Made by a program: the position numbers and the translations under genes
Shown here: in pieces, positions 2,418 through 23,229 of the stretch
How positions within the stretch are numbered: the stretch's first letter is position 1
Layout: each line of letters starts with the position of its first letter
The notes under the pieces: model-generated
Told to the model about the DNA's origin: nothing
What the model saw: only the letters and a program-made list of their open reading frames with translations
The model's database searches: none
Source: Patescibacteria group bacterium
GTDB taxonomy: Bacteria > Patescibacteriota > Saccharimonadia > UBA4664
Length of the DNA stretch: 64,000 nucleotides
Reading direction: 5' to 3'
Assembly (NCBI GenBank): GCA_028288925.1
Contig: JAQGHG010000003.1
Coordinates: 30,500-94,499 of the forward strand

Positions 2418-2903
2418 TTAACCTTTTTGCGCGTCTTTGCCCGGTTCCGGATCAAAAAAAATATACTTCTTCCGGTACCAAAAGTTCCAAAAAAACGTCA
2501 CACAAATCGCGATCAACTTACCCACCAGCGGCATGGTCTTCATTACTTCCACCACAAACACCGTCACTGCCGTTTGCAATATCAGCCCGATCACACTAGC
2601 GAACACTACCAGCATAAATTCCTTGCGCGCCGCGTGTGGGCGGTGGTTGAACACAAACGCCTGACTCAAATACCAGTTCAAGATGATCGCGATGATCATA
2701 CTCACAGGTGTCGCGACCACGTAGGAAATTCCGGCCATCACCATGAGTTGGAAGGTCGCCACTTCCACGCCCACCAAGACCACCGCCATCGCCAAATACC
2801 GCCACAATTCCGGCGTCAAATGCCGGGCAACCAGCCTCTTAGTGAGGCTCAACATGATGGCCCACGTACTTATCGAGCTCTTCCGGCGTGCCAAACGAGC
2901 CAA
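2418..2903 (-). CDS. GtrA-family membrane protein (polysaccharide synthesis or translocation).
   Basis: About 160 aa with four predicted TM helices and GtrA-like hydrophobic pattern. Lower GC. The start may be the internal Met (about 2855), which would reduce the overlap with the upstream gene. Confidence 0.6.
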   Translation of the reverse strand: MARLARRKSSISTWAIMLSLTKRLVARHLTPELWRYLAMAVVLVGVEVATFQLMVMAGISYVVATPVSMIIAIILNWYLSQAFVFNHRPHAARKEFMLVVFASVIGLILQTAVTVFVVEVMKTMPLVGKLIAICVTFFWNFWYRKKYIFFDPEPGKDAQKG

Positions 2904-3588
2904 ACTCGCCCACCGGCGCGGTCTGCACCTGGCCGCCTCCCTGCAAAATCATATTAAAGAGGGGAGAAATGTAGTATTCCTTCAGCTCCGCCGTTAACGG
3001 CTGGGCCAGGAGCTTATTGGCCGCATCCACAAACACCGATGCCCTACCAAAGTAGTAGGCGCCCCAGATAGCGCGGTTCGATATCGCCACCTTTTCGGCG
3101 GTGCGGATCGCAAAGCCCTGGTCATCTGTCTGCACGAAGCTATACCGCGGGTCGGTCGATTCAAACGTCAGCAGCCCAGCTGCGATATCAGCCTTTCCGC
3201 TCAGAGAATCCTCGACCATGTGGTTGTAGGCCTGGCTGGCAAACCAAAAGTCGCAGTCCATGAAGATCACGCCGTCGTCGGCCTCCAAGTGTGGCTCGGC
3301 CCGCAATGCATCGCGTGTAGCCCCGATCGGCTCCTCGTCGGTCATCACAATATTGGCCTCAGGTAGCTTCGCCTTGAGCTGCTTCTGCAGATCATACTGC
3401 TCGTCGTGCTCCTTACGGATGATGATGGTATAAGCCTTGGGCGCCTCAATCGCGTCAAAGCTGCTCAGAGCCTTCAGAAACATCGGCTGGCCGTCTACTT
3501 CGATTAACGGCTTGGGAGTCTTGTAGCCAATCTTGGCAAACCGCGAACCACGTCCCGCCATGGGCATTACGATATGGAGCCGTCTCAT
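2839..3588 (-). CDS. Sugar-phosphate nucleotidyltransferase (MobA-like NTP-transferase fold).
   Basis: MPMAGRGSRF, the G-x-G-x-R NTP-transferase motif, near the N-terminus. Abuts the GT2 gene. Confidence 0.65.
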   Translation of the reverse strand: MRRLHIVMPMAGRGSRFAKIGYKTPKPLIEVDGQPMFLKALSSFDAIEAPKAYTIIIRKEHDEQYDLQKQLKAKLPEANIVMTDEEPIGATRDALRAEPHLEADDGVIFMDCDFWFASQAYNHMVEDSLSGKADIAAGLLTFESTDPRYSFVQTDDQGFAIRTAEKVAISNRAIWGAYYFGRASVFVDAANKLLAQPLTAELKEYYISPLFNMILQGGGQVQTAPVGEFGSFGTPEELDKYVGHHVEPH

Positions 3589-4374
3589 TTATGCTTTCTC
3601 CTTAATATAGGGGGATGATGTATACTTCCCGGCCGGCTGAGGGCTAAACTTGAGCGCGCCAAACCGCCACAGCAGTAATTGCTGGATCGCCCGCTTGCCT
3701 ACCGCCACATTGCGCGCGTTCGTCACTTGATCTTCTTCGGTCCACGTAATCGGCACGAACTTGAGCTTGGTATTCTTGCTGTAATAATCCAGCAGCAAGT
3801 CAAAATTAAACGTCATGCGGTCATCGAAGCCCAGGTACCGGTGATCGGCCAAATTCTTGAGCCGGAAGAGATTCAGGCCCGAGCCCAAATCCAGCGTGCG
3901 GTGGAAGGTGAGTAAGGTATACATCAGGTTAAACACCCGGTTGCCCCAAATGCGTTCCCAAGCATAGCCCCGAAGCGTCGAGCCGCGCATAAACCGCGAA
4001 CCCAATACGGCGCCCAGTTCGGGATCCTTCTCGGCGGCGTCCAATAGGTTGTTTAGCTCGGGCGCCTTGGCCTGGTCATCACCATGCAAGATCGCCACGT
4101 AGTCCGCGCCGATCTTCTCGCCGTACAGAAACGCCATCTTGTGTGACCCACCCAGGCCCAGGTTGACGTCGTTGCGTACCACCTTAATCTTAGAGTGGTC
4201 GAACGGTAGCTTCTTGAGCTCCGCTAGCGCGGCCGCACCCGTATCGTCTTTACCTTGGTCATCAATTACGATCACCTCTGTCACTCTTGCCAATAACTTC
4301 TCATCAAAGCCGGCCAGTACCCGGCCGATCTGTGGCGCACAATTGTACGACGGAATCGCCACTAAAACCTTCAT
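3589..4374 (-). CDS. Family 2 glycosyltransferase (Dpm1-like).
   Basis: N-terminal VAIPSYNCAPQIGRVL...VIDDQGKDDT pattern typical of GT2 enzymes. Confidence 0.75.
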   Translation of the reverse strand: MKVLVAIPSYNCAPQIGRVLAGFDEKLLARVTEVIVIDDQGKDDTGAAALAELKKLPFDHSKIKVVRNDVNLGLGGSHKMAFLYGEKIGADYVAILHGDDQAKAPELNNLLDAAEKDPELGAVLGSRFMRGSTLRGYAWERIWGNRVFNLMYTLLTFHRTLDLGSGLNLFRLKNLADHRYLGFDDRMTFNFDLLLDYYSKNTKLKFVPITWTEEDQVTNARNVAVGKRAIQQLLLWRFGALKFSPQPAGKYTSSPYIKEKA

Positions 4375-4424
4375 AACTACTCCTTTGCTTGCCCCCTAGC
4401 TTAATACATCCCTTTTAAATGGAA

Positions 4425-4452
4425 CAGCCCACCCTCCGAAGAGGGTGGGCTG
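4425..4452 (-). terminator. Stem-loop downstream of IMPase-family gene 1 (CAGCCCACCCTC-cgaa-GAGGGTGGGCTG).
   Basis: Perfect 12-bp inverted repeat about 50 nt past the stop at 4502. Only a short U tract follows on the minus strand. Confidence 0.4.
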
Positions 4453-4501
4453 GCCGCTCGAGTGAGCGGCGGTTGTGGGCGAATGGGCCGGACGCGTTTC
4501 G

Positions 4502-5401
4502 TCAGCCGAAGGCGCGCATGATGGCTCCCCGGAGGAAGTCGAACCCGTCCCCCGTGCCGGCGGTGAGGAGGAAGTCGTAGCCGAAGGGATCGAGGGGGTC
4601 GCACTCGACGAGCCGGCGGTCGTCCGTGACGAGGAAGCCGGCGGCCATTCCGCCGGACCGAACCACATGGAGCGCCCCGGCGCAGTCGTACGGGCCACCC
4701 ATGGCCAGCGTGAGTGTGCCGGCCACGCCTGTCGGGGACGGGTGACCGAGCGTACTTCCGTCGGCACCCCTGGCATGATGCATGCCGTTGGAGCCGAAGC
4801 AGTTGATCTTCACCCGGCCGACCAGTTCGGAGACGAGGCGTTTGATGCCATCGTTGTCCCACACGAGCTTGGTGCCTCCATGGGCCCTGAACTCGCCGAG
4901 CAGGTCGATCAGGACGACGCCCTTCTCGAACGGCCCCTCCCAGACCCGGCAGGTCTTGGGCGGGCGGCCATCGACGAGCAGTGTGCAGTCGGTGGCGTCG
5001 GCCACCCAGATCCGGCCGGTGCCGGGATCGCCGATGACGGTGCAGACGATTTGCTTGTACCGCCGGTCGTACAGCGCGATGATCACGGTGCATGAGGCTA
5101 TGCCCAGCGCGAGGGCCAGCGTACCGTCGACCGGATCGATCAGTACGCAGTACCGCACCGATTCCTTGAGGCCCAGCCAGCCGGCCTCCTCGCGGAGGAT
5201 GGGCAGTCCGAGCGTCCTCAGCTCGTTGGTCGCGGCATCCTCGCTCGCGCGGTCTGCTGCGGTCACGACGGTCTGGTCGGCGGACTTGCGCCGGATGTCG
5301 TTCAGGTCGACAGCGCCGGTCTGGTACGGTCTGATGACGGCCATCGAGGCGCGAACGCCTTTGATGGCCTGCTGCCGGAAACCGGCAACGATGCTAGACA
5401 T
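4502..5401 (-). CDS. Inositol-monophosphatase family protein (IMPase / CysQ-like phosphatase), paralog 1.
   Basis: LIDPVDGT (DPIDGT motif) and WDxxAG-like region. Very high GC. Confidence 0.8.
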   Translation of the reverse strand: MSSIVAGFRQQAIKGVRASMAVIRPYQTGAVDLNDIRRKSADQTVVTAADRASEDAATNELRTLGLPILREEAGWLGLKESVRYCVLIDPVDGTLALALGIASCTVIIALYDRRYKQIVCTVIGDPGTGRIWVADATDCTLLVDGRPPKTCRVWEGPFEKGVVLIDLLGEFRAHGGTKLVWDNDGIKRLVSELVGRVKINCFGSNGMHHARGADGSTLGHPSPTGVAGTLTLAMGGPYDCAGALHVVRSGGMAAGFLVTDDRRLVECDPLDPFGYDFLLTAGTGDGFDFLRGAIMRAFG

Positions 5402-5491
5402 GCAGAATCAACTCCAGGGGTGTAGGAACGGGGGAGAGGAACAGGGGGCAGAACTGCTATACGATAACACAATCAACAAAAATTACAAGTC

Positions 5492-6421
5492 CTATGCAAA
5501 CGTCCGTACCAAAACCTCGCTCAAAGCCTCCAATGTCCGCTCATTGTTAGCTACCAAGAGCATGTCGTAAGCGGTGGGGTCGAGCGGATCACGCTGCTCC
5601 AACTGGCGCTGCTCGGTTACCCAAAACCCACGGGCCGCGCCGCCGGCCCTCAGCACCAAGAGAGCCCCGGCGCAGTCCCACCAGCTACCCATGCCCAGCG
5701 TCAATCCCGCTGCCACCCCAATGGTTGCATCGGTCGAATACGCCCCGTCCGCCACCATTGCCTGGTGAAAACCGTTGGAGCCATATGATTGAATAACTAC
5801 CTGGTCAAACAGCGCCTCGTACAGCTTCAAGCAGCCCTCTGCGCACAGCACCTGCTTGGTGCCCGAATGGGCCTTAAACGGCCGGAACTTATCAATCAGT
5901 ACCGTAGTAGTCCGGGAGAGCTCACCCGGCCAGGTCCGGCATTCCACTGTCTGCTGTGGCGTATCGGCAAGATCGCTTCCATGAACCAATCGCCGGCAGC
6001 CGGCGTTGTCGGCCACCCATACTCGTCCCGTCGCTGGGTGCCCAATCGCCGCGCCTACCAGCTGCCGTGCGTCACGCGAGTACAGCGCCACCATGGTGGT
6101 CGAAGTAGCGGTGCCGGTCGCGAACGATCGGGTGCCGTCGATCGGGTCAATGATTATAAAATACGGCGCATCAACCTGTTCGCCCGTCCAGCCGTCCTCT
6201 TCGCCCAAGATTGGCACGTTCGGCAGCGCGGCTCGCAGCATTGTCACCATCACGGCCTCACATGCATGATCAGCCTCAGTCACCAGCGAGGCATCTGCCT
6301 GCTTCATCTCTGAAGCGCTCACTATCTGGGCGCCCCGCTGATAAGCTGCGACAACCCGCATCGCCTCCAGTACCGCCTTGGGCGCAATCTCACCAAAGGT
6401 AGCAAGCGGCGATTCCCGCAA
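5492..6421 (-). CDS. Inositol-monophosphatase family protein, paralog 2.
   Basis: IIDPIDGT motif and EEDGW upstream motif. Tandem with paralog 1. Confidence 0.8.
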   Translation of the reverse strand: MRESPLATFGEIAPKAVLEAMRVVAAYQRGAQIVSASEMKQADASLVTEADHACEAVMVTMLRAALPNVPILGEEDGWTGEQVDAPYFIIIDPIDGTRSFATGTATSTTMVALYSRDARQLVGAAIGHPATGRVWVADNAGCRRLVHGSDLADTPQQTVECRTWPGELSRTTTVLIDKFRPFKAHSGTKQVLCAEGCLKLYEALFDQVVIQSYGSNGFHQAMVADGAYSTDATIGVAAGLTLGMGSWWDCAGALLVLRAGGAARGFWVTEQRQLEQRDPLDPTAYDMLLVANNERTLEALSEVLVRTFA

Positions 6422-6427
6422 GGTAAC

Positions 6428-7297
6428 CTACCCGCGCCCTTCCAGCAGCCCCTTCAAATACTTCCCGTATCCACTTTTCACCAGCGGCGCCGCCAGCGCC
6501 TCCAATTGCTCATCAGTAATAAACTTCTCTCGCCAGGCCACTTCCTCGATACAACCAATCTTAAATGCCATACGCTCCTCGATGATCTGCACAAAGGTCG
6601 CCGCGTCCATCATCGATTGGAAGGTGCCGGTATCCAGCCAGGCCGTGCCGCGGTCCAGCAGCGACACTTTGAGGTTGCCCTGGCGCCGGTACGCGTCCAG
6701 TACTTCGGTGATCTCCACCTCGCCACGCGGGCTCGGCTTCACATTGCGGGCAATCTCCACAACATCGTTATCGGTAAAGTACAGCCCTGCGTTAGCGTAG
6801 TTCGATCTTGGCTTCTCCGGCTTCTCTTCGATCGAGATCACCTTCATGTCTTTATCAAACTCGTACACCCCATACCGCTCCGGGTCCTTCACCGGCGCGG
6901 CAAAACCTACTGCGCCGTCGATGTCGGTGTACTTCTTGAGCTTCTCGCCCATTTGCGTGCCGTAAAACAGGTTATCGCCCAAGATCATAGCGACTTTATC
7001 GTTGCCAATAAAGTCCGCTCCTACCAGATAAGCATCGGCCAATCCGCGCGGCTTCTCCTGCACCTTGTAGGTAAAGTTGCAGCCAATCTGCTCGCCGCTT
7101 CCCAGCAGCTCCTCGAACCGCGGCAGGTCCTTGGGCGTCGAGATGATCAGAACATCACGAATCCCCGCGCTCATCAGCGTACTCAGCGGATAGTAAATCA
7201 TCGGCTTGTCATACACCGGCACTAATTGCTTAATAACACCCTTGGTGATTGGATACAGACGCGTTCCCGAACCACCTGCCAGAATAATGCCTCTCAT
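6428..7297 (-). CDS. rfbA: Glucose-1-phosphate thymidylyltransferase.
   Basis: MRGIILAGGSGTRLYPIT... is a classic RmlA N-terminus. ATG at 7295-7297 with AGGTAGG 7 nt upstream. The ORF-track TTG start at 7318 is probably too long. Confidence 0.9.
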   Translation of the reverse strand: MRGIILAGGSGTRLYPITKGVIKQLVPVYDKPMIYYPLSTLMSAGIRDVLIISTPKDLPRFEELLGSGEQIGCNFTYKVQEKPRGLADAYLVGADFIGNDKVAMILGDNLFYGTQMGEKLKKYTDIDGAVGFAAPVKDPERYGVYEFDKDMKVISIEEKPEKPRSNYANAGLYFTDNDVVEIARNVKPSPRGEVEITEVLDAYRRQGNLKVSLLDRGTAWLDTGTFQSMMDAATFVQIIEERMAFKIGCIEEVAWREKFITDEQLEALAAPLVKSGYGKYLKGLLEGRG

Positions 7298-7373
7298 AAA
7301 AGAAAACCTACCTATCAATTACCGGTCCATGATAACAGATGGGCCACCCGTAAGGATAGGCGGCCCATCTACC

Positions 7374-8234
7374 TTACCGGGCGCGTGTCTCATTCTTAAT
7401 ATACTCAGCCAAATCCTGGCGCCAATCCCGCGGCTTCACGCCTTCGGCTTCAATCTTGCTCAGGTCCATCGCGCTCTGTAGCGGCCGGGGCGCCGCCTCG
7501 GGCTTGTCTTGGAAGTACTCTTTGGTACTAATGCCCGTCACGGTCAAATCGTCCCGCCCCAGCTCCCCAAATATGGCTCGGGTGATCTCTGCCCAATCCG
7601 CCGGCTCACCACCGTTTGATAAGTTATAAATACCATAACCACTCTTGGACTCCAGCAGCTTCTCGATCCCGTCCACCAGTGTCTTGGTGAACGTCAGCCG
7701 GCCCACCTGGTCGTTCACTACCTTGGGCGAAATGTTCTTCGCCGCCAGACCCATCATCGTGCGCACGAAGTTGGGCCCGTCGCCGATCAGCCAGCTCACC
7801 CGCGCTACATAGTGCTTGGGTACGGCGCCCACCACGATATCGCCCGCCGCCTTGGTCTGCGCGTATACCCCGAGCGGCGACACCGGCTCGTCCTCGGTGT
7901 GCGGAACTTTGGTGCCGTCGAAGACGTACTCGCTCGACACATGCACCATCGTCAGATCGCGCTTGGTCGCCACGCGCGCCAAGTTTGCCACCGCCTGAGC
8001 ATTAATCTGCCAAGCCGCCACCCGGCCTTCGGGCTTCTCAGCGCCGTCTACATTGGTATAAGCAGCCGCATTCAAGACCACGTCAACCTTCGACCAATCA
8101 AAGGCCTCCAGCGCGGCGGCGTTCGTAATATCCAGTCCGTCCCTATCTACCGCGATAGCTTTGGGAAAGCGCTCTTGCAAGGCCTTGCCCAGCTGCCCGT
8201 AGGCGCCGATTATCAGAAATCGCGATGAGTCCAC
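7374..8234 (-). CDS. rfbD: dTDP-4-dehydrorhamnose reductase.
   Basis: FLIIGAYGQLG Rossmann motif and RmlD-like length. Operon position between rfbC and rfbA. Confidence 0.85.
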   Translation of the reverse strand: MDSSRFLIIGAYGQLGKALQERFPKAIAVDRDGLDITNAAALEAFDWSKVDVVLNAAAYTNVDGAEKPEGRVAAWQINAQAVANLARVATKRDLTMVHVSSEYVFDGTKVPHTEDEPVSPLGVYAQTKAAGDIVVGAVPKHYVARVSWLIGDGPNFVRTMMGLAAKNISPKVVNDQVGRLTFTKTLVDGIEKLLESKSGYGIYNLSNGGEPADWAEITRAIFGELGRDDLTVTGISTKEYFQDKPEAAPRPLQSAMDLSKIEAEGVKPRDWRQDLAEYIKNETRAR

Positions 8235-8801
8235 TTATACCTCCATCGGTTTAACGTCTTTGAGCACGGGGTGGTTGCGGTCTTTCTCGGACAAGATGGC
8301 TTCATCGAGCGGAATAGGCCATCGCACGTTGAGCGTCGGGTCGGCCAGGTTCACAAATGAATACTTCTCGTAGGCGTCCGGCGTCCAGTGCTTGTTAACG
8401 CTATACAAGTAATAAAGATCATCGGTCAGGCACTGGTACGAATTGCCTACGCCGGCCGGCACAAACACCGCTTTCTCGGGTGTCAGCTCCAGCGTCACCA
8501 GCTTGCCGAAGCTCTCGCCCTGGCGCAGGTCGGCGTACGCCACAAACGCCTTGCCGTTCACGACCGACACATACTTGTCCCATGGCTCGGCATGAAAGCC
8601 GCGCGTCACGCCCTTCTTATTGAAGGCCAAACTATTCTGGACCACATTAAAGGCTTCCGGCAGACCGGCGGCCACCAATTTGCCCTTGTGAAACTTCTCC
8701 TGAAAATAGCCCCGCTCATCGCCCACCAGGGTCACATCAAAAATCAACAAACCCGGAATATCTGTTTGGTGGCCGGTTACTTCGGTGGTTGGTACTGCCA
8801 T
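8235..8801 (-). CDS. rfbC: dTDP-4-dehydrorhamnose 3,5-epimerase.
   Basis: RmlC cupin pattern (RGFHAEPW..., YYLYS...) and about 188 aa. Confidence 0.85.
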   Translation of the reverse strand: MAVPTTEVTGHQTDIPGLLIFDVTLVGDERGYFQEKFHKGKLVAAGLPEAFNVVQNSLAFNKKGVTRGFHAEPWDKYVSVVNGKAFVAYADLRQGESFGKLVTLELTPEKAVFVPAGVGNSYQCLTDDLYYLYSVNKHWTPDAYEKYSFVNLADPTLNVRWPIPLDEAILSEKDRNHPVLKDVKPMEV

Positions 8802-8826
8802 TAGTTCTTCACTCCCTTAAGTATCG

Positions 8827-15963: not shown

Positions 15964-17883
15964 ATGGCCAAACGCAAAGCCCCATCAGTTAAAACCCTGG
16001 ATCTTCGGATTAAGCCCACGAGCGCACCCGCGCCCAAGCCTCAGCCCGACCCTACCCCCGTACCCGAGGAAGACGCCCAAGATATCCTCGAGCTTGAGGA
16101 TTTTCAGGATGACCCACACAACCCGGATTCCGGCCAGCACGCTGCCGTGGCCACCTGGCATCGCGCACCGTTTTGGGCCCGGGCTCTCGGCAGTCTCGTC
16201 GTATTTGCCGTGCTAGCGGTTGCTAGCTTCGAGCTCGTCTATGCCGGCAAGGTCTTCCCTGGTGTCACGGCCAACGGCGCCGACCTCGGCGGCCACTCGC
16301 TCAAAGGCTCCCAAGCCTTGCTCGAAGACAAAGCCACTCAATTCAACCAACAAGTCATCACCATTACGGACGGCGACACCAATCTTCGCATCCCCGTGAT
16401 CAGCCTAGCGCCGCAGTATGGCGCCGCCCGCGCCGCCCAGCTCGCCTACCATTACGGCCGGGAGGGGAGCCTGACTAACCGCGCGCGCCAGCAACTTCGG
16501 GCGCTGTTGGGCCGTGCCACCAATTTCTCGGTGTACAGCTATAATGACGCCCGCCTCATTCCCTACGTGGTGGGCCTCGACGACGACCTCATTACGCCCG
16601 TCCAGAACGCCTCCCTCAACTTTAATGACAGCCACGCCCAAGTCACCCCAGCCCAAACCGGCACGCGTCTGGACCTCGGTCGCCTCACCCAGCTCGTCAA
16701 CGAACGTCTCGCGCAGACCTCGGTCGAGCCTATCCACGCGCCGGTGTACCAGCTCCAGCCCGACCTCGGCACCGAGCCCCTTCAGGCCGCCGTCCGTCAG
16801 ATCGACGGCTACGTCTCGGGCCCCATCCCCCTCACCTACAACGGGATTGAGCGGCAAATCGACCAAAAAACCATCATCTCTTGGATCCAAGTCGGCGCCA
16901 AGCTCAACAAACCATTCCTCCAAACCCTCAAGTTGGACGATCTCTACCCGCCGTCCGCCGCCGCCGATCTCGGCTTGAGCAACGCCGCGGTCCAGGCCTA
17001 TGTGGCCGACCTCGCCAGGGGTATCGACCAGACCGCCCAGAACGCCGGCCTCGCTATGCAGGACGGCCATTTGGCCGTAGTCCAACCCAGCCGCACCGGC
17101 GCCAAGCTCGATCAGCCGGCCGCGGTCACAGCCATTCTGGCCGCCCTCAAGCAGCCCAGCAACCAACGCACCACCACCCTCAAGCTCGCCACTACCGCCG
17201 CCGAAGTCAACGAAAACAACCTCGAAAGCCTCGGCATCAAAGAGCAAATATCCGAGGGCGAGACCTATTTCCCCGGCTCGCCCAGCACCCGTCTCACCAA
17301 CGTCCGCGCCGGCGCCAACCGGTTCAACGGCGTATTGCTCAAGCCCGGCGAAGTCTTCTCGTTTGGCAAGCTGCTCGGCGCCGTCGGCCCCGAGACCGGC
17401 TATGTGCCCGAGCTCGTCATATTGGGCGACCATGAGGAGAAACAGTACGGCGGCGGCCTCTGCCAAGTCAGCTCCACGGCCTTCCGCGCCGCCCTGGCCG
17501 CCGGCCTGCCCATCCTGGAGCGTGTCAACCACGCCTTCGCCATTAGTTACTACACCTGGCCCTACAGCGCGCCCGGCGTCGACGCCACCATCTATTACCC
17601 CGCCGTCGACTTCAAATTCAAAAACGACACCGGCAGCTATATCTTGATGCAGACCATCATGAAGGGCACCGATCTCAAGTTCGAATTCTTCGGCACCAAG
17701 ACCAAAACCGGCGTACTCCGTGGACCGGACTTCGTCACCGGCAACAGCGATCCCACCCAGCCCTCGCACACCGTCTTCTATCGTGACGTCCTCGATCTGA
17801 CCGGAGCCGTTACCAAGACCGACACGTTCAACACCTACTACAAGTCCAGCAAAGACTTTCCCATCACCAAGCAGTTCAATTAA
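15964..17883 (+). CDS. VanW-family protein, membrane-anchored.
   Basis: YGGGLCQVSSTAFRAALAAGLPI is the VanW hallmark. N-terminal TM segment. Confidence 0.85.
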   Translation: MAKRKAPSVKTLDLRIKPTSAPAPKPQPDPTPVPEEDAQDILELEDFQDDPHNPDSGQHAAVATWHRAPFWARALGSLVVFAVLAVASFELVYAGKVFPGVTANGADLGGHSLKGSQALLEDKATQFNQQVITITDGDTNLRIPVISLAPQYGAARAAQLAYHYGREGSLTNRARQQLRALLGRATNFSVYSYNDARLIPYVVGLDDDLITPVQNASLNFNDSHAQVTPAQTGTRLDLGRLTQLVNERLAQTSVEPIHAPVYQLQPDLGTEPLQAAVRQIDGYVSGPIPLTYNGIERQIDQKTIISWIQVGAKLNKPFLQTLKLDDLYPPSAAADLGLSNAAVQAYVADLARGIDQTAQNAGLAMQDGHLAVVQPSRTGAKLDQPAAVTAILAALKQPSNQRTTTLKLATTAAEVNENNLESLGIKEQISEGETYFPGSPSTRLTNVRAGANRFNGVLLKPGEVFSFGKLLGAVGPETGYVPELVILGDHEEKQYGGGLCQVSSTAFRAALAAGLPILERVNHAFAISYYTWPYSAPGVDATIYYPAVDFKFKNDTGSYILMQTIMKGTDLKFEFFGTKTKTGVLRGPDFVTGNSDPTQPSHTVFYRDVLDLTGAVTKTDTFNTYYKSSKDFPITKQFN

Positions 17884-17888
17884 TATTG

Positions 17889-17917
17889 TTGACACTTCGG
17901 GTTTTGTTCGGTAAACT
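17889..17917 (+). promoter_or_regulatory. Sigma70-like promoter, TTGACA-N17-TAAACT, upstream of lexA, flanked by an inverted repeat ATTGTTGAC...GTTAACAAT.
   Basis: ttgaca at 17889-17894, taaact at 17912-17917. Inverted-repeat arms at 17885-17893 and 17940-17948. Confidence 0.5.
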
Positions 17918-17948
17918 GTGGATAAAGTAAATCTAGAGGGTTAACAAT

Positions 17949-18569
17949 ATGGCAGAGCCACTTACCAAACGTCAGAAAGAAGTCCTAAATTTCGTCACCC
18001 AATATCTCGAGCTCAACGGCTACGCGCCAAGCTACCGCGAGATCGCCGCGCACTTTAAATACGGCTCGGTAGCCACGGTCGCTGAGCACATCGAATCGCT
18101 CGTCGCCAAAGGCATGCTCCAAAAAGGCGACAATGAAGCCCGGTCTATCCAGCTCGTCCGAGCCGAGGATGTAGATGCCACCCCCAGCATCAGTCTCCCC
18201 ATCCTGGGGCTAGTCGCGGCCGGACAGCCCATCGAGACCCTGGGCCGGCACACCGAGACGCTCGAAGTTCCGCCCTTTATGGTCGGGCGCCGCAACTCTT
18301 ATGTGCTTCAAGTCAAAGGCGACTCCATGATCGACGAAGGCATCCATACGGGCGACTATGTGGTAGTCACCGAGAAGTCGGTTCCTTCTAATGGCGAGAT
18401 GGTCATCGCGCTTATCAACGGCGGCGAAGCCACCCTCAAGCGCTATTACAAAGAAAAAGGCCACATCCGCTTGCAGCCCTCCAATTCTGCCATGGAGCCC
18501 ATCATTATTGAGGCCGGTACCCCGATCGAGATCCAAGGCATCGTCATCGGCCTCATTCGGAAATACTAG
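17949..18569 (+). CDS. lexA: LexA repressor (SOS regulator, S24 peptidase).
   Basis: N-terminal winged HTH (LTKRQKEVLNFV...YAPSYREIA), AAG cleavage site (LVAAGQP) and the Ser/Lys dyad region (GDSM...K). Confidence 0.9.
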   Translation: MAEPLTKRQKEVLNFVTQYLELNGYAPSYREIAAHFKYGSVATVAEHIESLVAKGMLQKGDNEARSIQLVRAEDVDATPSISLPILGLVAAGQPIETLGRHTETLEVPPFMVGRRNSYVLQVKGDSMIDEGIHTGDYVVVTEKSVPSNGEMVIALINGGEATLKRYYKEKGHIRLQPSNSAMEPIIIEAGTPIEIQGIVIGLIRKY

Positions 18570-18577
18570 GCAAAACG

Positions 18578-18784
18578 ATGGCATACTCTCCGATCACTTT
18601 TGAATGCCAAATGTACGTCTCGCCCCGAGGTCTCATGGCGTTCCGCCTGCCATCCGAGTCTGGCCCAAAACGCGTCGCCCGCTTCCGTACTCTCGAGTAC
18701 GACGAGCTCATCAATCCAGACTTCCGCCGTCTGCTGGCGACCTTCGAATCCCTTCCCCAGCCGCTCCAAACTGTGCAGGTCTAA
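18578..18784 (+). CDS. Small hypothetical protein (68 aa).
   Basis: ORF only, convergent with the bla-like gene. No recognised motif. Confidence 0.25.
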   Translation: MAYSPITFECQMYVSPRGLMAFRLPSESGPKRVARFRTLEYDELINPDFRRLLATFESLPQPLQTVQV

Positions 18785-19836
18785 GCGGCCAGAACCACAT
18801 CGGCCAACGCACGCCGCACAGCGTTAATCTCGTCGCGATTCTCGGGTCGGTGTGGCCAGGTTAGGTTTGAAAGGTGTACGAGCGCCGCCTGCCTCTTGGG
18901 GTCAATCACCACGAGGCAGCCGGTAAAACCAGTTTTGCCAAACTTCTGGTCGCTGCCGGCGCCGCCCATTACCTTGGCAAAGTTCAGCTCCCAGCCCAGA
19001 CCGGTACTCTCGCCAAGCCGGGCAATTTGGTTCGTGTGCATTAGGATAATTGTCTCGGGCGTAAAGATCCGCCGGCCGTCCCAGCTACCCTCGTTGAGCA
19101 ATAATTATTCAAACTTCAAAACATCTCCAGTCGTCGAAAACAAGCCCGCGTGACCAGGCGGTTTACCCGATTCCCGTAATGCCCATCCAGCCTCATCGTG
19201 CACGCTCCCCCGTACCTCGCCACGCCAATCTACCTCAGTGGGAGCAACCGCTTCGGCGGGGAGGCCAGGGTGGAACGTCGTGTTCTTCATGCCGAGAGGC
19301 TTAAAAAACAGCTCCTGGGCGACTTCATCAAGGGGCCTGCCGCAAATCCGCTCAACTATCAAGCCCAGCAAGATAGCGGGGGAGTTAGTATAGTGGTAGC
19401 GCTCACCGGGTGGTGCCAGGAGTGGGCAAGTGAATAGTCGCTCTAATAGTTGGTCCGGTGTCTCCCTCGCCACCTTCGCCAACCCTCCTGGTAGGTCAAA
19501 AATCACAGTATAAGTCAGCAGGTGCCGGATCAGTATCCGCTCACGGAATTCATTCTGCAGCTCCGGCACATAGGCAATCGCCTGGTCGTCCAAGGCGACC
19601 CGGCCGTCCTCGAGCAGCTTGAGTATAATCGAGCTAGTCGGTATTGACTTCGTAATAGAAGCCACATCGTATGTCGTCTCCGCGGTGACTGCCGGCGCGC
19701 CCGCTTCGTAGGTGAGGCGCCCAAAGGCTCGCACCTCCGTCTTGCCTCGTCGGATCCATCCCACCGTGCAGCCGGGGAACACCCGCTCGCGGATCGCTCG
19801 CTCACAGATCTGTTCGACCTGAGCGGTTACGCTCAA
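18781..19836 (-). pseudogene. Class-C beta-lactamase / serine-hydrolase family gene interrupted by a single in-frame TAA stop (at 19105-19107).
   Basis: Upstream ORF 19105..19836 carries SITKS (SxxK) and YHYTNS (YxN). The in-frame downstream ORF 18781..19101 carries the KTG box (FGKTGFTG). The two ORFs share one frame and are separated only by TAA. Confidence 0.7.
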
Positions 19837-20819
19837 ACTACCGCGCCCATCGGCCGGGAGCCGCTCTGCCGCTGCCAGGTCGCCGCCGAATCAAACTGCA
19901 GCAGCGCCCGCGCCACACGCGTACGGCCGGCCGCTTGATGCCGGGCCACGGCCTCGGCCAGCGATTCGTGCGACAGCTCCATGTCGTGCAAAAAGAAAGC
20001 GTCGTCGCCGTAAGTACGCAAGAACTGCGCCGAGAAACCACCCGGGCTCAAGGCCTGCACGCGGTGCGCCAGCAGCACTAGAGCCTCGTATTGATCACGC
20101 TGAAGCTTTGAGATACCCTGGAGCGGCCGCGCTGTGTCCAGCGTCCGCTGAAAGCTGCTAGCCAACGTCAAGAATTCCGCGTCCACCCCCAGCAACACAT
20201 CCAGCGCGTCATCCATAGCCTCCGTCTGGGTGGGGGAGACGGTGGCGCGCGCCAGCCGCCGCATATCAACCTCGTGCTTGGCCAAAAACGCTTCCATCGA
20301 CTGCCAGCTCGCCGCCACGCGGTCCTCCAATTCCGTCTTGGGTTTAAGGCCGAAATCTCCCGGCGCCACCTGGCCGGTGTAGTCCACCAATAAGCTCGAC
20401 GGGGGGAGCTCCGCTACCAATGCCCCCACAGCCGTCTCGCTCAGCTCAGAAGTCAGGTAAAGGCTGAAGCAGTTGGCCGGAATCATGCCTAGCTGCTTTG
20501 GCCGCACCAAAAAAGCCGTCGCCTCAGGATCATCATGCGGGGCCTCCGCGGCCAGATTCATGTGCTGCATTTGCGTAATGGTATAGGTATACTTCAAAAT
20601 CTCGACGGCGTTCGTGGAAAATGCCCGCCGGCGCTGCAATGTCCGGGAGAGCTTGAGCCACTGCTTTTGAGCCAAAGGCAGCATAGCCGCGGGTTGGTCG
20701 CATACAATGATAGCCTTCCCCAAATGCTGCCGCGCCTGCAGATGGCGCATTACATCCGCCATCATATTTGCCGCTGCGTTTCGGACGCGCCGCCGGTTCT
20801 CCAGATAATGTACAGCCAT
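19833..20819 (-). CDS. Uncharacterised 328-aa protein, co-operonic with radC and the bla-like gene.
   Basis: No recognisable motif. 4-nt overlap with the downstream gene, 38-nt gap to radC. Confidence 0.5.
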   Translation of the reverse strand: MAVHYLENRRRVRNAAANMMADVMRHLQARQHLGKAIIVCDQPAAMLPLAQKQWLKLSRTLQRRRAFSTNAVEILKYTYTITQMQHMNLAAEAPHDDPEATAFLVRPKQLGMIPANCFSLYLTSELSETAVGALVAELPPSSLLVDYTGQVAPGDFGLKPKTELEDRVAASWQSMEAFLAKHEVDMRRLARATVSPTQTEAMDDALDVLLGVDAEFLTLASSFQRTLDTARPLQGISKLQRDQYEALVLLAHRVQALSPGGFSAQFLRTYGDDAFFLHDMELSHESLAEAVARHQAAGRTRVARALLQFDSAATWQRQSGSRPMGAVV

Positions 20820-20856: not shown

Positions 20857-21528
20857 CTATAGTAAGTGGTGCTGGCGAAAACTAAAATAGTCCGTTTTCG
20901 TCAAAATAATATGATCTCGCAGTGATACTCCCAACAAAAGTCCGGAAGCCACCAGCTGTTGGGTCAGGGTAATATCGTGCTGGCTGGGCTGCAGATCACC
21001 CGACGGATGATTGTGCGCCACGATCACGCTCGCCGCCCGGTCCATCAGGGCGTCAGCGAACACCTCACGGGGATGTGCCAAGACCGCGTCAAGGGTGCCG
21101 ATAGTGATGATGCGCTGAGTGATCAAGCGCTGGCCGCCGTCCAGCGACAGCGCCACCAAATACTCCTGCTGCTTGGAGCGGATGTCATCGAGATGAGCCA
21201 CGATCTCGCTCATGGTGCGCAACGGCATGGCGCCCTTCACCAGGTGGCGCTTAGCCAGCTCTAGAGCGGCCAGGATCTTGCCTGCCCGCGCCATGCTCAC
21301 GCCATGCAAACTCACTAGGGATTCGTAGGTCACGGCCTGCATGCCCTTTTGCATGAGCTTTTGAATCTGGCGGGCAATCTGGCCTACATCCGCGCCCGGC
21401 GTCCCATTGCCCAATATCACCTCCAGCAACTCGAAATCTGAAAGCGCGGCCGCCCCCTTGCGCCGCAACTTCTCACGCGGACGGTCAAGGGCTGGAATCT
21501 GGGAAATGCGTCGACGGTTTGGCATCAC
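20857..21528 (-). CDS. radC: RadC-family JAB/MPN-domain protein.
   Basis: HNHPSG JAMM motif and N-terminal HhH-like region. Confidence 0.85.
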   Translation of the reverse strand: MMPNRRRISQIPALDRPREKLRRKGAAALSDFELLEVILGNGTPGADVGQIARQIQKLMQKGMQAVTYESLVSLHGVSMARAGKILAALELAKRHLVKGAMPLRTMSEIVAHLDDIRSKQQEYLVALSLDGGQRLITQRIITIGTLDAVLAHPREVFADALMDRAASVIVAHNHPSGDLQPSQHDITLTQQLVASGLLLGVSLRDHIILTKTDYFSFRQHHLL

Positions 21529-21566: not shown

Positions 21567-22073
21567 TTAGCCCTGCGGCCGCAAATGCACCGGCTGATGA
21601 TATCGCGGCACTACTCGTAGAGGTAGCTGGATACCATCAAACGCCGTCTTGGCCTCTTGGCGAAGTACGCCGCCCACCACCTCCGGTCGGTAGTCCCAAT
21701 CCTGAGCCAGCTGCGCGATCCGGACCTTGCGTTGACGAAAGATATGCGGCAAATCATCGCGCGACAACGCGTAGACTATTCGCGGAATATTCGAAAAAAA
21801 GATCGCGGCCGAGCACATCGGGCAAGGCTCCATCGAAGAATAAATGATGCAGTCGCTCAAGTCGCGCCGTTCAAGCATGCGGCAGGCCGCGCTCACCGCG
21901 ATCGTCTCCGCGTGAGCGGTGACGTCCGCGAGCTGCCCTTCGCTGTTCTCGGCCGACACCAACACCGTACCCTCGCGTACGATCACCGCCCCAAACGGCA
22001 GGTCGCCATGCTCCCTCGCAAGCCGGGCTTGCTCCAGGGCCAATCGCATGTACTCTTCCTTGATCCAATTCAT
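21567..22073 (-). CDS. Nucleoside/tRNA adenosine deaminase (CDA fold, TadA-like).
   Basis: HAETIA ... PCPMCSAAI zinc-binding motifs. Confidence 0.8.
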   Translation of the reverse strand: MNWIKEEYMRLALEQARLAREHGDLPFGAVIVREGTVLVSAENSEGQLADVTAHAETIAVSAACRMLERRDLSDCIIYSSMEPCPMCSAAIFFSNIPRIVYALSRDDLPHIFRQRKVRIAQLAQDWDYRPEVVGGVLRQEAKTAFDGIQLPLRVVPRYHQPVHLRPQG

Positions 22074-22185: not shown

Positions 22186-23229
22186 CTAATCCTCCGGCTG
22201 CTCCTCGTCCAGCCGCTCCCGAAAAGCCAACTCCCGCTCGGCCGCGTATGTCTCCTCGGCTTCCGCCCCGGCCTTCACCTGCGGCAACACCTCGCGCTCA
22301 TAAAACCGCAAAAACTCGGCTTGGCGCGGCCCGATCTGGTGCACGTATACGTGGTCATAACCAGCATCAATGAATGCCTGAATCGCCCCGATGTGGCGTT
22401 GCGGATCCGGGCCCAGTGCCACATGCTCCGTAGCCGCCTCGGGCGTAAGCATCTTGGCTAACTGTTCAAAGTAGGCCGGCAGCCTCAGCTCCGAAGCCGC
22501 CTGCCCCGGTATTCCCGCGTTCGGCCAGTACCGGAAAGCTATCTCGCGGGCCTCCTCCTCGGTTTCGGCGTAGCAGACATTTACCTGACCGTACTTTGGT
22601 TTACCCCGGCCGCCACCTTCCTCAAACGCCTGGACGAGCTCCCGCTCCGGCGCCACCGATACGAAGCCGTCACCCACCATCCCGGCCATCCCCGCCGAGG
22701 TCACGCCGAATCCGGACACCACAATCTCCGGCAGTTGCCGGGGCAAGGTGTAAAGCTTAGCCTTCTCCACGCTAAAGTAGCCGCCCATGTAGTTCACCCA
22801 ATCGCCCCGCCACAGCTCGCGGATAATATCTATGGCCTCCATCAGCATCTCTCGCCGGACATCAATATGCGGCCACACTTCGCCGGTAATATGCTCATTC
22901 AAATACTCACCCGTGCCCACACCTAGCACAAAGCGTCCCTCCAGAAGCGCCGCCGAAGTCGCCGCCGCCTGGGCCACAATCGCCGGGTGCAGCCGCCCAA
23001 TCGGGCACACTACCTCCACCAGCACTTCAATCCGCTCAGTCACCTGCGCGATACCCCCCAGCACCGACCACACGAAAGGGCTCTGCCCCTGTTGCTCTAC
23101 CCATGGGTGGAAGTGGTCCGAGATTCCCACAAAATCAAACCCCACTTGCTCCGCCCGCCGGGCGTTATCTATCAAGACCTGCGGCGGGTGTTCCTCGCTC
23201 GATAACGTATAACCAATCCTTGCCGTCAT
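22186..23229 (-). CDS. LLM-class (luciferase-like) flavin/F420-dependent oxidoreductase.
   Basis: TIM-barrel LLM pattern (GFDFVGISDHFHPW, LGVGTGEYLNE). Length 347 aa. Confidence 0.65.
   Translation of the reverse strand: MTARIGYTLSSEEHPPQVLIDNARRAEQVGFDFVGISDHFHPWVEQQGQSPFVWSVLGGIAQVTERIEVLVEVVCPIGRLHPAIVAQAAATSAALLEGRFVLGVGTGEYLNEHITGEVWPHIDVRREMLMEAIDIIRELWRGDWVNYMGGYFSVEKAKLYTLPRQLPEIVVSGFGVTSAGMAGMVGDGFVSVAPERELVQAFEEGGGRGKPKYGQVNVCYAETEEEAREIAFRYWPNAGIPGQAASELRLPAYFEQLAKMLTPEAATEHVALGPDPQRHIGAIQAFIDAGYDHVYVHQIGPRQAEFLRFYEREVLPQVKAGAEAEETYAAERELAFRERLDEEQPED

Follow-up and report, generated by a model that had tools for sequence, protein, structure and literature searches.

Does a serine hydrolase gene that is interrupted by a single in-frame TAA represent a pseudogene, a sequencing error, a stop that is read as an amino acid, or an enzyme made in two pieces? 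A locus on the minus strand of a 64-kb stretch of Patescibacteria DNA (64,000 nucleotides, hereafter the window) raises this question, and we followed it from the reading frame itself through other assemblies, orthologs and neighbouring genes.

A hydrolase gene divided by an in-frame TAA

The list of open reading frames (ORFs) contains the gene as two entries, 19105..19836 (243 aa) and 18781..19101 (106 aa, TTG start), which share one frame (Table 1). The codons around the stop read GAT GTT TTG AAG TTT GAA TAA TTA TTG CTC AAC GAG GGT AGC TGG. The preliminary description of this DNA had placed SxxK and YxN in the upstream ORF and KTG in the downstream ORF of the same frame, with the TAA as the sole separator. 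Sequence and ORF list agree on this arrangement, with SITKS and YHYTN in the upstream part and FGKTGFTG, the third motif, located downstream of the premature stop. The peptide following the stop, given there as LLNEGSW, is in fact LLLNEGSW. Direct reading of the downstream part revealed no additional stops or frameshifts. In an alignment with orthologs (see below) SxxK, YxN and KTG, in that order, all fall into invariant or nearly invariant columns of the family.

Compared with the Pfam profile PF00144, residues 13-242 of the N part matched profile positions 7-231 with 141 bits, above the gathering score (cutoff 27), while the C part alone matched positions 258-323 with 23.2 bits, under the cutoff of 27. 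Given that the two matches occupy consecutive positions of the profile, the parts are pieces of a single domain that has been cut, and their juxtaposition is not due to chance. The TAA parts KTG from SxxK and YxN, and the three motifs of a PF00144 hydrolase are therefore not found on one polypeptide. By descent the gene is a disrupted member of PF00144 (MEROPS S12-like), presumably a non-functional one. Its 243-aa product is identical to NCBI MDB5178170.1, a hypothetical protein (JWN01_113) of a metagenome-assembled genome (MAG) labelled Patescibacteria group bacterium. A tblastn search detected no PF00144 paralog elsewhere in the 64-kb window.

Table 1. Positions of the interrupted hydrolase gene and of surrounding features in the window.
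Feature	Position	Strand	Remarks
Hydrolase, N part with premature TAA	19105..19836	-	243 codons; TTG start; SxxK (S60, K63); YxN (Y149, N151)
In-frame TAA (ochre)	19107..19105	-	Following base T (TAAT); direct sequence reading
Hydrolase, C part with natural TAG stop	18781..19104	-	107 codons; KTG box K301-T302-G303; conserved LSN..P motif
Conserved ORF, 328 aa	19833..20819	-	Directly upstream of hydrolase; no Pfam or NCBIfam match
radC	20857..21528	-	PF04002 (RadC-like JAB domain), 127 bits; PF20582 (UPF0758 N-terminal), 62 bits; 37 nt upstream of 328-aa ORF
68-aa ORF	18578..18784	+	Convergent with hydrolase, 4-nt overlap with its 3' end; starts 9 nt after lexA
lexA	17949..18569	+	LexA_DNA_bind and Peptidase_S24 on the identical gene of contig L002; same place in contigs L013 and L014
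Luciferase-like gene	22186-23229		
Deaminase	21567-22073		
VanW	15964-17883		
Perfect 10-bp palindrome AATAATTATT	19100..19109	.	Spans the premature stop; unique in the 64-kb window

The stop in other assemblies and the use of TAA in the window

The source is a metagenome-assembled genome, in which a sequencing or assembly error could have replaced a sense codon, and a sequencing error was among the options offered by the preliminary description. Further assemblies of the locus were located by exact look-up of the gene products. The 106-aa TTG-start fragment gave no match in this look-up, while the 86-aa ATG-start call for the downstream part matched a contig. A Logan contig (L001, SRR29932559, 1152 bp) is 99.65% identical to window positions 19065-20216 and displays the same GAA TAA TTA TTG. 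Its 4 mismatches, 3 of them nonsynonymous, lie between 19859 and 19983, all within the last ~45 codons of the 328-aa ORF. A JGI contig (L002, metagenome 3300059325, 2209 bp) is 100% identical to positions 17806-20014 and has the same TAA, and its gene calls are split identically, into 243 aa and 86 aa. The same stop was thus obtained from three pipelines (NCBI MAG, Logan and JGI) and in at least two distinct consensus sequences, given the 4 mismatches of the Logan contig elsewhere, which makes an assembly or base-calling error very unlikely. We regard a sense codon in the true sequence as a negligible prospect, and the option of a sequencing error is effectively excluded. The TAA allele is common to at least two strains or samples.

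No intact allele at 66-100% identity was present among 5.8 billion protein clusters. A degenerate DNA pattern of the stop context, with any first base allowed, had no match in a metagenome contig collection, which evidently does not include the identical JGI contig. On the Logan contig, the 770 nt of the hydrolase gene that are covered are free of SNPs relative to the window; all 4 SNPs fall into the first third of the contig, a distribution with a chance of ~0.012 under an even spread.

A genuine TAA may still be decoded as an amino acid, site-specifically or throughout the organism, and this would yield low or regulated amounts of the complete enzyme of 351 aa. The frame beyond the stop is indeed open and conserved, and lineages with an altered code exist within the Patescibacteria, namely Gracilibacteria and Absconditabacteria, which read UGA as Gly. 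Against such decoding stands the ordinary use of TAA in the window, where it is the commonest terminator: the 49 long ORFs with high GC3 end in TAA in 24 cases (7 of them as TAAT), in TAG in 15 and in TGA in 10. To our knowledge, no ochre reassignment has been recorded in bacteria. The stop also stands in the context TAAT, the strongest termination context in E. coli.

For a recurrence of in-frame stops we collected all same-frame pairs of stop-to-stop segments of at least 60 codons each and compared the coding-like ones with Pfam. Apart from the hydrolase, no conserved domain in the 64-kb window is cut by an in-frame stop. The other same-frame pairs are complete and unrelated genes (NTP-transferase/inositol monophosphatase, NUDIX/methyltransferase, RmlC/RmlD, GT2/NTP-transferase and PALP enzyme/response regulator), and complete RmlC, NUDIX and GT2 domains terminate at TAA. 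A reassigned stop is expected to be a rare terminator that recurs in frame within other genes, and TAA shows neither property within the 64 kb. Genome-wide recoding of TAA is therefore excluded at the scale of the window, and we consider decoding of this TAA as an amino acid in any form, including the stop-codon readthrough named earlier as conceivable, to be highly improbable.

Orthologs of the hydrolase and predicted effect of the truncation

A search with the repaired protein retrieved more than 1500 relatives, the best of which are full-length proteins of 342-384 aa with 50-66% identity and 97-100% query coverage; the named sources of these best relatives are mostly Candidatus Saccharimonadia or Saccharibacteria. 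All 28 aligned orthologs are single, uninterrupted polypeptides, colinear across the position of the stop. In this column they have Q (13 sequences), E (6), A (3), K (2), R (2) or D (2). The repaired protein was also compared with genome contigs, a search that returned only distant relatives from other phyla (24-30% identity) and reached neither the source MAG nor close relatives. Ortholog DNA was therefore taken from two contigs encoding ortholog proteins, L013 (66% identity) and L014 (61% identity), and the codon at the stop position is CAG (Gln) in both.

The gene order on L013 is luciferase-like gene, deaminase, MASE1, radC, 328-aa unknown ORF, hydrolase (349 aa), small convergent ORF and lexA. 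On L014 it is radC, 316-aa unknown ORF, two citrate-lyase-like genes, hydrolase (352 aa), small ORF and lexA, with VanW and GlmS beyond. Membership in the same sequence family together with the same gene neighbourhood establishes orthology. The preliminary description had proposed aligning orthologs to see which sense codon occupies the position, and had noted that its interpretation would fall if the two halves were separate genes in relatives. The alignment gives mostly Gln, and the syntenic orthologs on both contigs are intact and uninterrupted.

A sense codon in uninterrupted syntenic orthologs, together with the recurrence of the TAA in the Logan and JGI contigs, supports the nonsense lesion that had been claimed. 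Its proposed origin in one step from CAA, AAA or GAA may be correct as well, but the two closest orthologs use CAG and not CAA. The stop would most simply derive from a Gln codon CAA, one step from the CAG of the relatives, and less likely from a Glu or Lys codon; the route could plausibly have been CAG > CAA > TAA, or a single change from GAA or AAA.

The effect of the stop on the protein was assessed on an AlphaFold2 model of the closest intact ortholog, P0002, and not of the window product itself (mean pLDDT 96.5, pTM 0.94). In this model the residue equivalent to the stop, Q242, lies inside the helix 234-245, and downstream of it follow the strands 297-301 (KTG), 305-310 and 315-321 and the C-terminal helix 333-347. 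Judged by this model, the 243-aa product would retain the nucleophile Ser60, the general base Lys63 and Tyr149, but the active site would lose one of its walls and the central sheet three strands, and the C-terminal helix would be missing as well. Translation would end with residue 243, within the helix located before the KTG strand, and the truncated hydrolase would be unable to form an active site in the absence of that strand. The model thus strongly suggests that both folding and activity would be lost.

In sequence comparison with solved structures by phmmer, the best match was the family VIII carboxylesterase EstU1 (4IVI, E = 1.8e-24), in which a Gln aligns with the stop position, followed by EstG (7UDA/7U1B). 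Foldseek searches with the P0002 model returned EstG, EstU1, ClbP, EH7 and EstB and then AmpC enzymes, with TM scores of 0.7-0.8 at 18-24% identity, and place this closest intact ortholog in the class C beta-lactamase/PBP fold. EstU1 (4IVI), Caulobacter EstG (7U1C/7UDA) and EstB (1CI8) are the best matches in sequence and fold (TM 0.80-0.81). These family VIII or EstG-type esterases have the same SxxK/YxN/K-T/S-G triad and a similar size, and the hydrolase and its orthologs are without a signal peptide; the identity is just 22-24%, however, and the gene in the window is interrupted.

The catalytic motifs and the fold are also common to PBP4B (E. coli YfeW), AmpH and AmpC, but the hydrolase scores far under the curated NCBIfam cutoffs for such proteins: the best model, PBP4B, gave E = 5.5e-36 and 124 bits against a cutoff of 385, the class C beta-lactamase model (bla_class_C) 59.3 bits against 415, and AmpH 51 bits against 266. 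Neither the hydrolase nor its orthologs have a signal-like N-terminal extension, as they start directly at the first helix, which makes a role in the envelope doubtful. Given the absent signal peptide, sequence and model favour a cytoplasmic esterase or amidase as more likely than an envelope PBP. By every test applied, the hydrolase is not a resistance beta-lactamase.

Age of the lesion, fate of the fragments and gene neighbourhood

To evaluate the state of the gene after the stop, both parts were compared with the intact orthologs. At columns conserved to at least 90%, the window sequence departs from the majority residue at 1 of 51 positions upstream of the stop and at 1 of 21 downstream (2/72), with intact orthologs showing 0-5 deviations per part. 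With the closest ortholog it shares 64% identity before and 67% after the stop, a level similar to that of the flanking genes with their counterparts on L013 (68% for the 328-aa ORF, 72% for the 68-aa ORF). Tajima-type relative-rate tests against P0002 with five outgroups revealed no excess of lineage-specific change in either half (p = 0.27-1.0; C part alone, p = 0.30-1.0). Relaxed selection and secondary lesions, as expected of an older pseudogene, are thus not seen. Such a result agrees with a very recent event and does not refute the reading as a pseudogene.

The stop-bearing strains differ by 0-0.35% and are identical within the gene; at the distance of the nearest ortholog (66% amino acid identity), synonymous sites are saturated. 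Either the lesion would be young relative to the divergence of the lineage, or the downstream part may still be under selection; these sequences fit both equally, and the two readings are inseparable among strains so close to each other. A possibly recent inactivation had also been suggested in the preliminary description.

Continued selection would be expected if the gene were functionally split, with termination at the TAA, reinitiation at TTG 19101 or ATG 19041, and non-covalent association of the 243-aa and 106-aa (or 86-aa) fragments to an active enzyme. Reinitiation is physically possible, with a TTG codon 3 nt beyond the TAA (TAA TTA TTG). Every invariant residue is kept downstream without rate acceleration, and the TAA allele occurs in more than one sample; the absence of decay is, however, expected for a recent mutation anyway, with strains 0-0.35% apart. 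Neither TTG 19101 nor ATG 19041 (66 nt downstream of the stop) is preceded by a Shine-Dalgarno-like site. In contrast, GGAGG or AGGAG is present at -8 to -14 of several other window genes, among them rmlD, glmS and the luciferase-like gene. The orthologs, moreover, are single polypeptides in 28 of 28 cases, and the break interrupts a helix rather than a loop or a domain boundary.

Beta-lactamase fragments are also known to reassemble inefficiently without help. Engineered split TEM-1 beta-lactamase, as used in protein-fragment assays, requires fused interaction partners. These assays show a beta-lactamase-fold enzyme working as two polypeptides and are relevant to a split hydrolase only; in contrast to them, the break in the window lies within a helix and a two-fragment state is hypothetical here. 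We consider a functional split unlikely. If true, it would constitute a naturally split beta-lactamase-fold enzyme retained by selection in a Saccharimonadia population.

Together, these data point to a real nonsense mutation in a lineage-conserved serine hydrolase gene of a Saccharimonadia-like Patescibacteria population; the gene is most likely an ordinary, recently inactivated pseudogene. The data show the stop and its recurrence across assemblies, the orthology, the normal role of TAA as a terminator and the lack of decay, while the codon that was replaced, the lost activity and the young age of the lesion are what we infer. The nonsense event would have been recent enough that neither half shows detectable damage. 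Young nonsense pseudogenes of reduced or host-dependent bacterial genomes likewise display a single premature stop, as the only lesion, in a syntenic and conserved gene with intact flanks. We see no substantive difference from them, and the hydrolase appears to be one more instance, in a Saccharimonadia-like MAG. A literature search on pseudogenes and stop codons in Saccharibacteria returned nothing relevant. For annotation, the 243-aa 'hypothetical protein' and the 86- or 106-aa fragment (NCBI/IMG) are better joined into a single entry marked as a pseudogene. Across Saccharimonadia the gene is otherwise well preserved and syntenic, beside lexA and close to radC. A recent loss in one soil-type lineage would add a minor observation on the gene loss that continues in Patescibacteria, and hints that in this niche the organism can do without the substrate of the hydrolase.

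The gene had further been described as translationally coupled to an upstream unknown ORF and to radC. The overlap behind the first part of this claim is real in the window, where the TTG start of the hydrolase (19836) overlaps the TGA stop (19835..19833) of the 328-aa ORF in a TTGA at 19836..19833. radC, located further upstream, is not overlapped, and the coupling is not conserved in relatives. The 328-aa ORF is 68% and 56% identical to ORFs beside radC in L013 (4998-5984) and L014 (749-1699), respectively, and the position of radC is the same in both contigs. In the window, L013 and L014 alike, this ORF is always directly downstream of radC. Given that the citrate-lyase-like genes of L014 lie between its homolog and the hydrolase, it is radC, rather than the hydrolase, that the ORF accompanies.

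On the other side of the gene, the 68-aa ORF has counterparts in L013 (7211-7423; 72% identity) and L014 (5782-5970; 67% identity), with 35 invariant residues, and matched no Pfam or NCBIfam family. From its position it may encode a small protein cotranscribed with lexA. A Pup-ligase gene (PF03136) adjoins lexA in L013 (8176-9573) and L014 (6729-8183), the place taken in the window by the VanW-domain gene.

The premature stop itself lies in an AT-rich patch, GAATAATTATTG, in a genome of 58% GC. Among the coding 12-mers of the window, 0.5% contain at least 10 A/T, and TTA, at 4.1 per 1000, is the least used Leu codon. We considered the patch as a binding site or as the footprint of a mobile element and rejected both, since there is no length change relative to the orthologs and the palindrome within it occurs once in the window. 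It was also rejected as a LexA box, being unlike known LexA boxes. The palindrome in the AT-rich patch is probably incidental.

Elsewhere in the window, positions 2839-8816 of the minus strand contain a dTDP-rhamnose/sugar-nucleotide cluster with RmlC, RmlD, NTP-transferases, GT2 and an inositol-monophosphatase-family gene, in which adjacent genes are often in one frame and start directly after the preceding stop.
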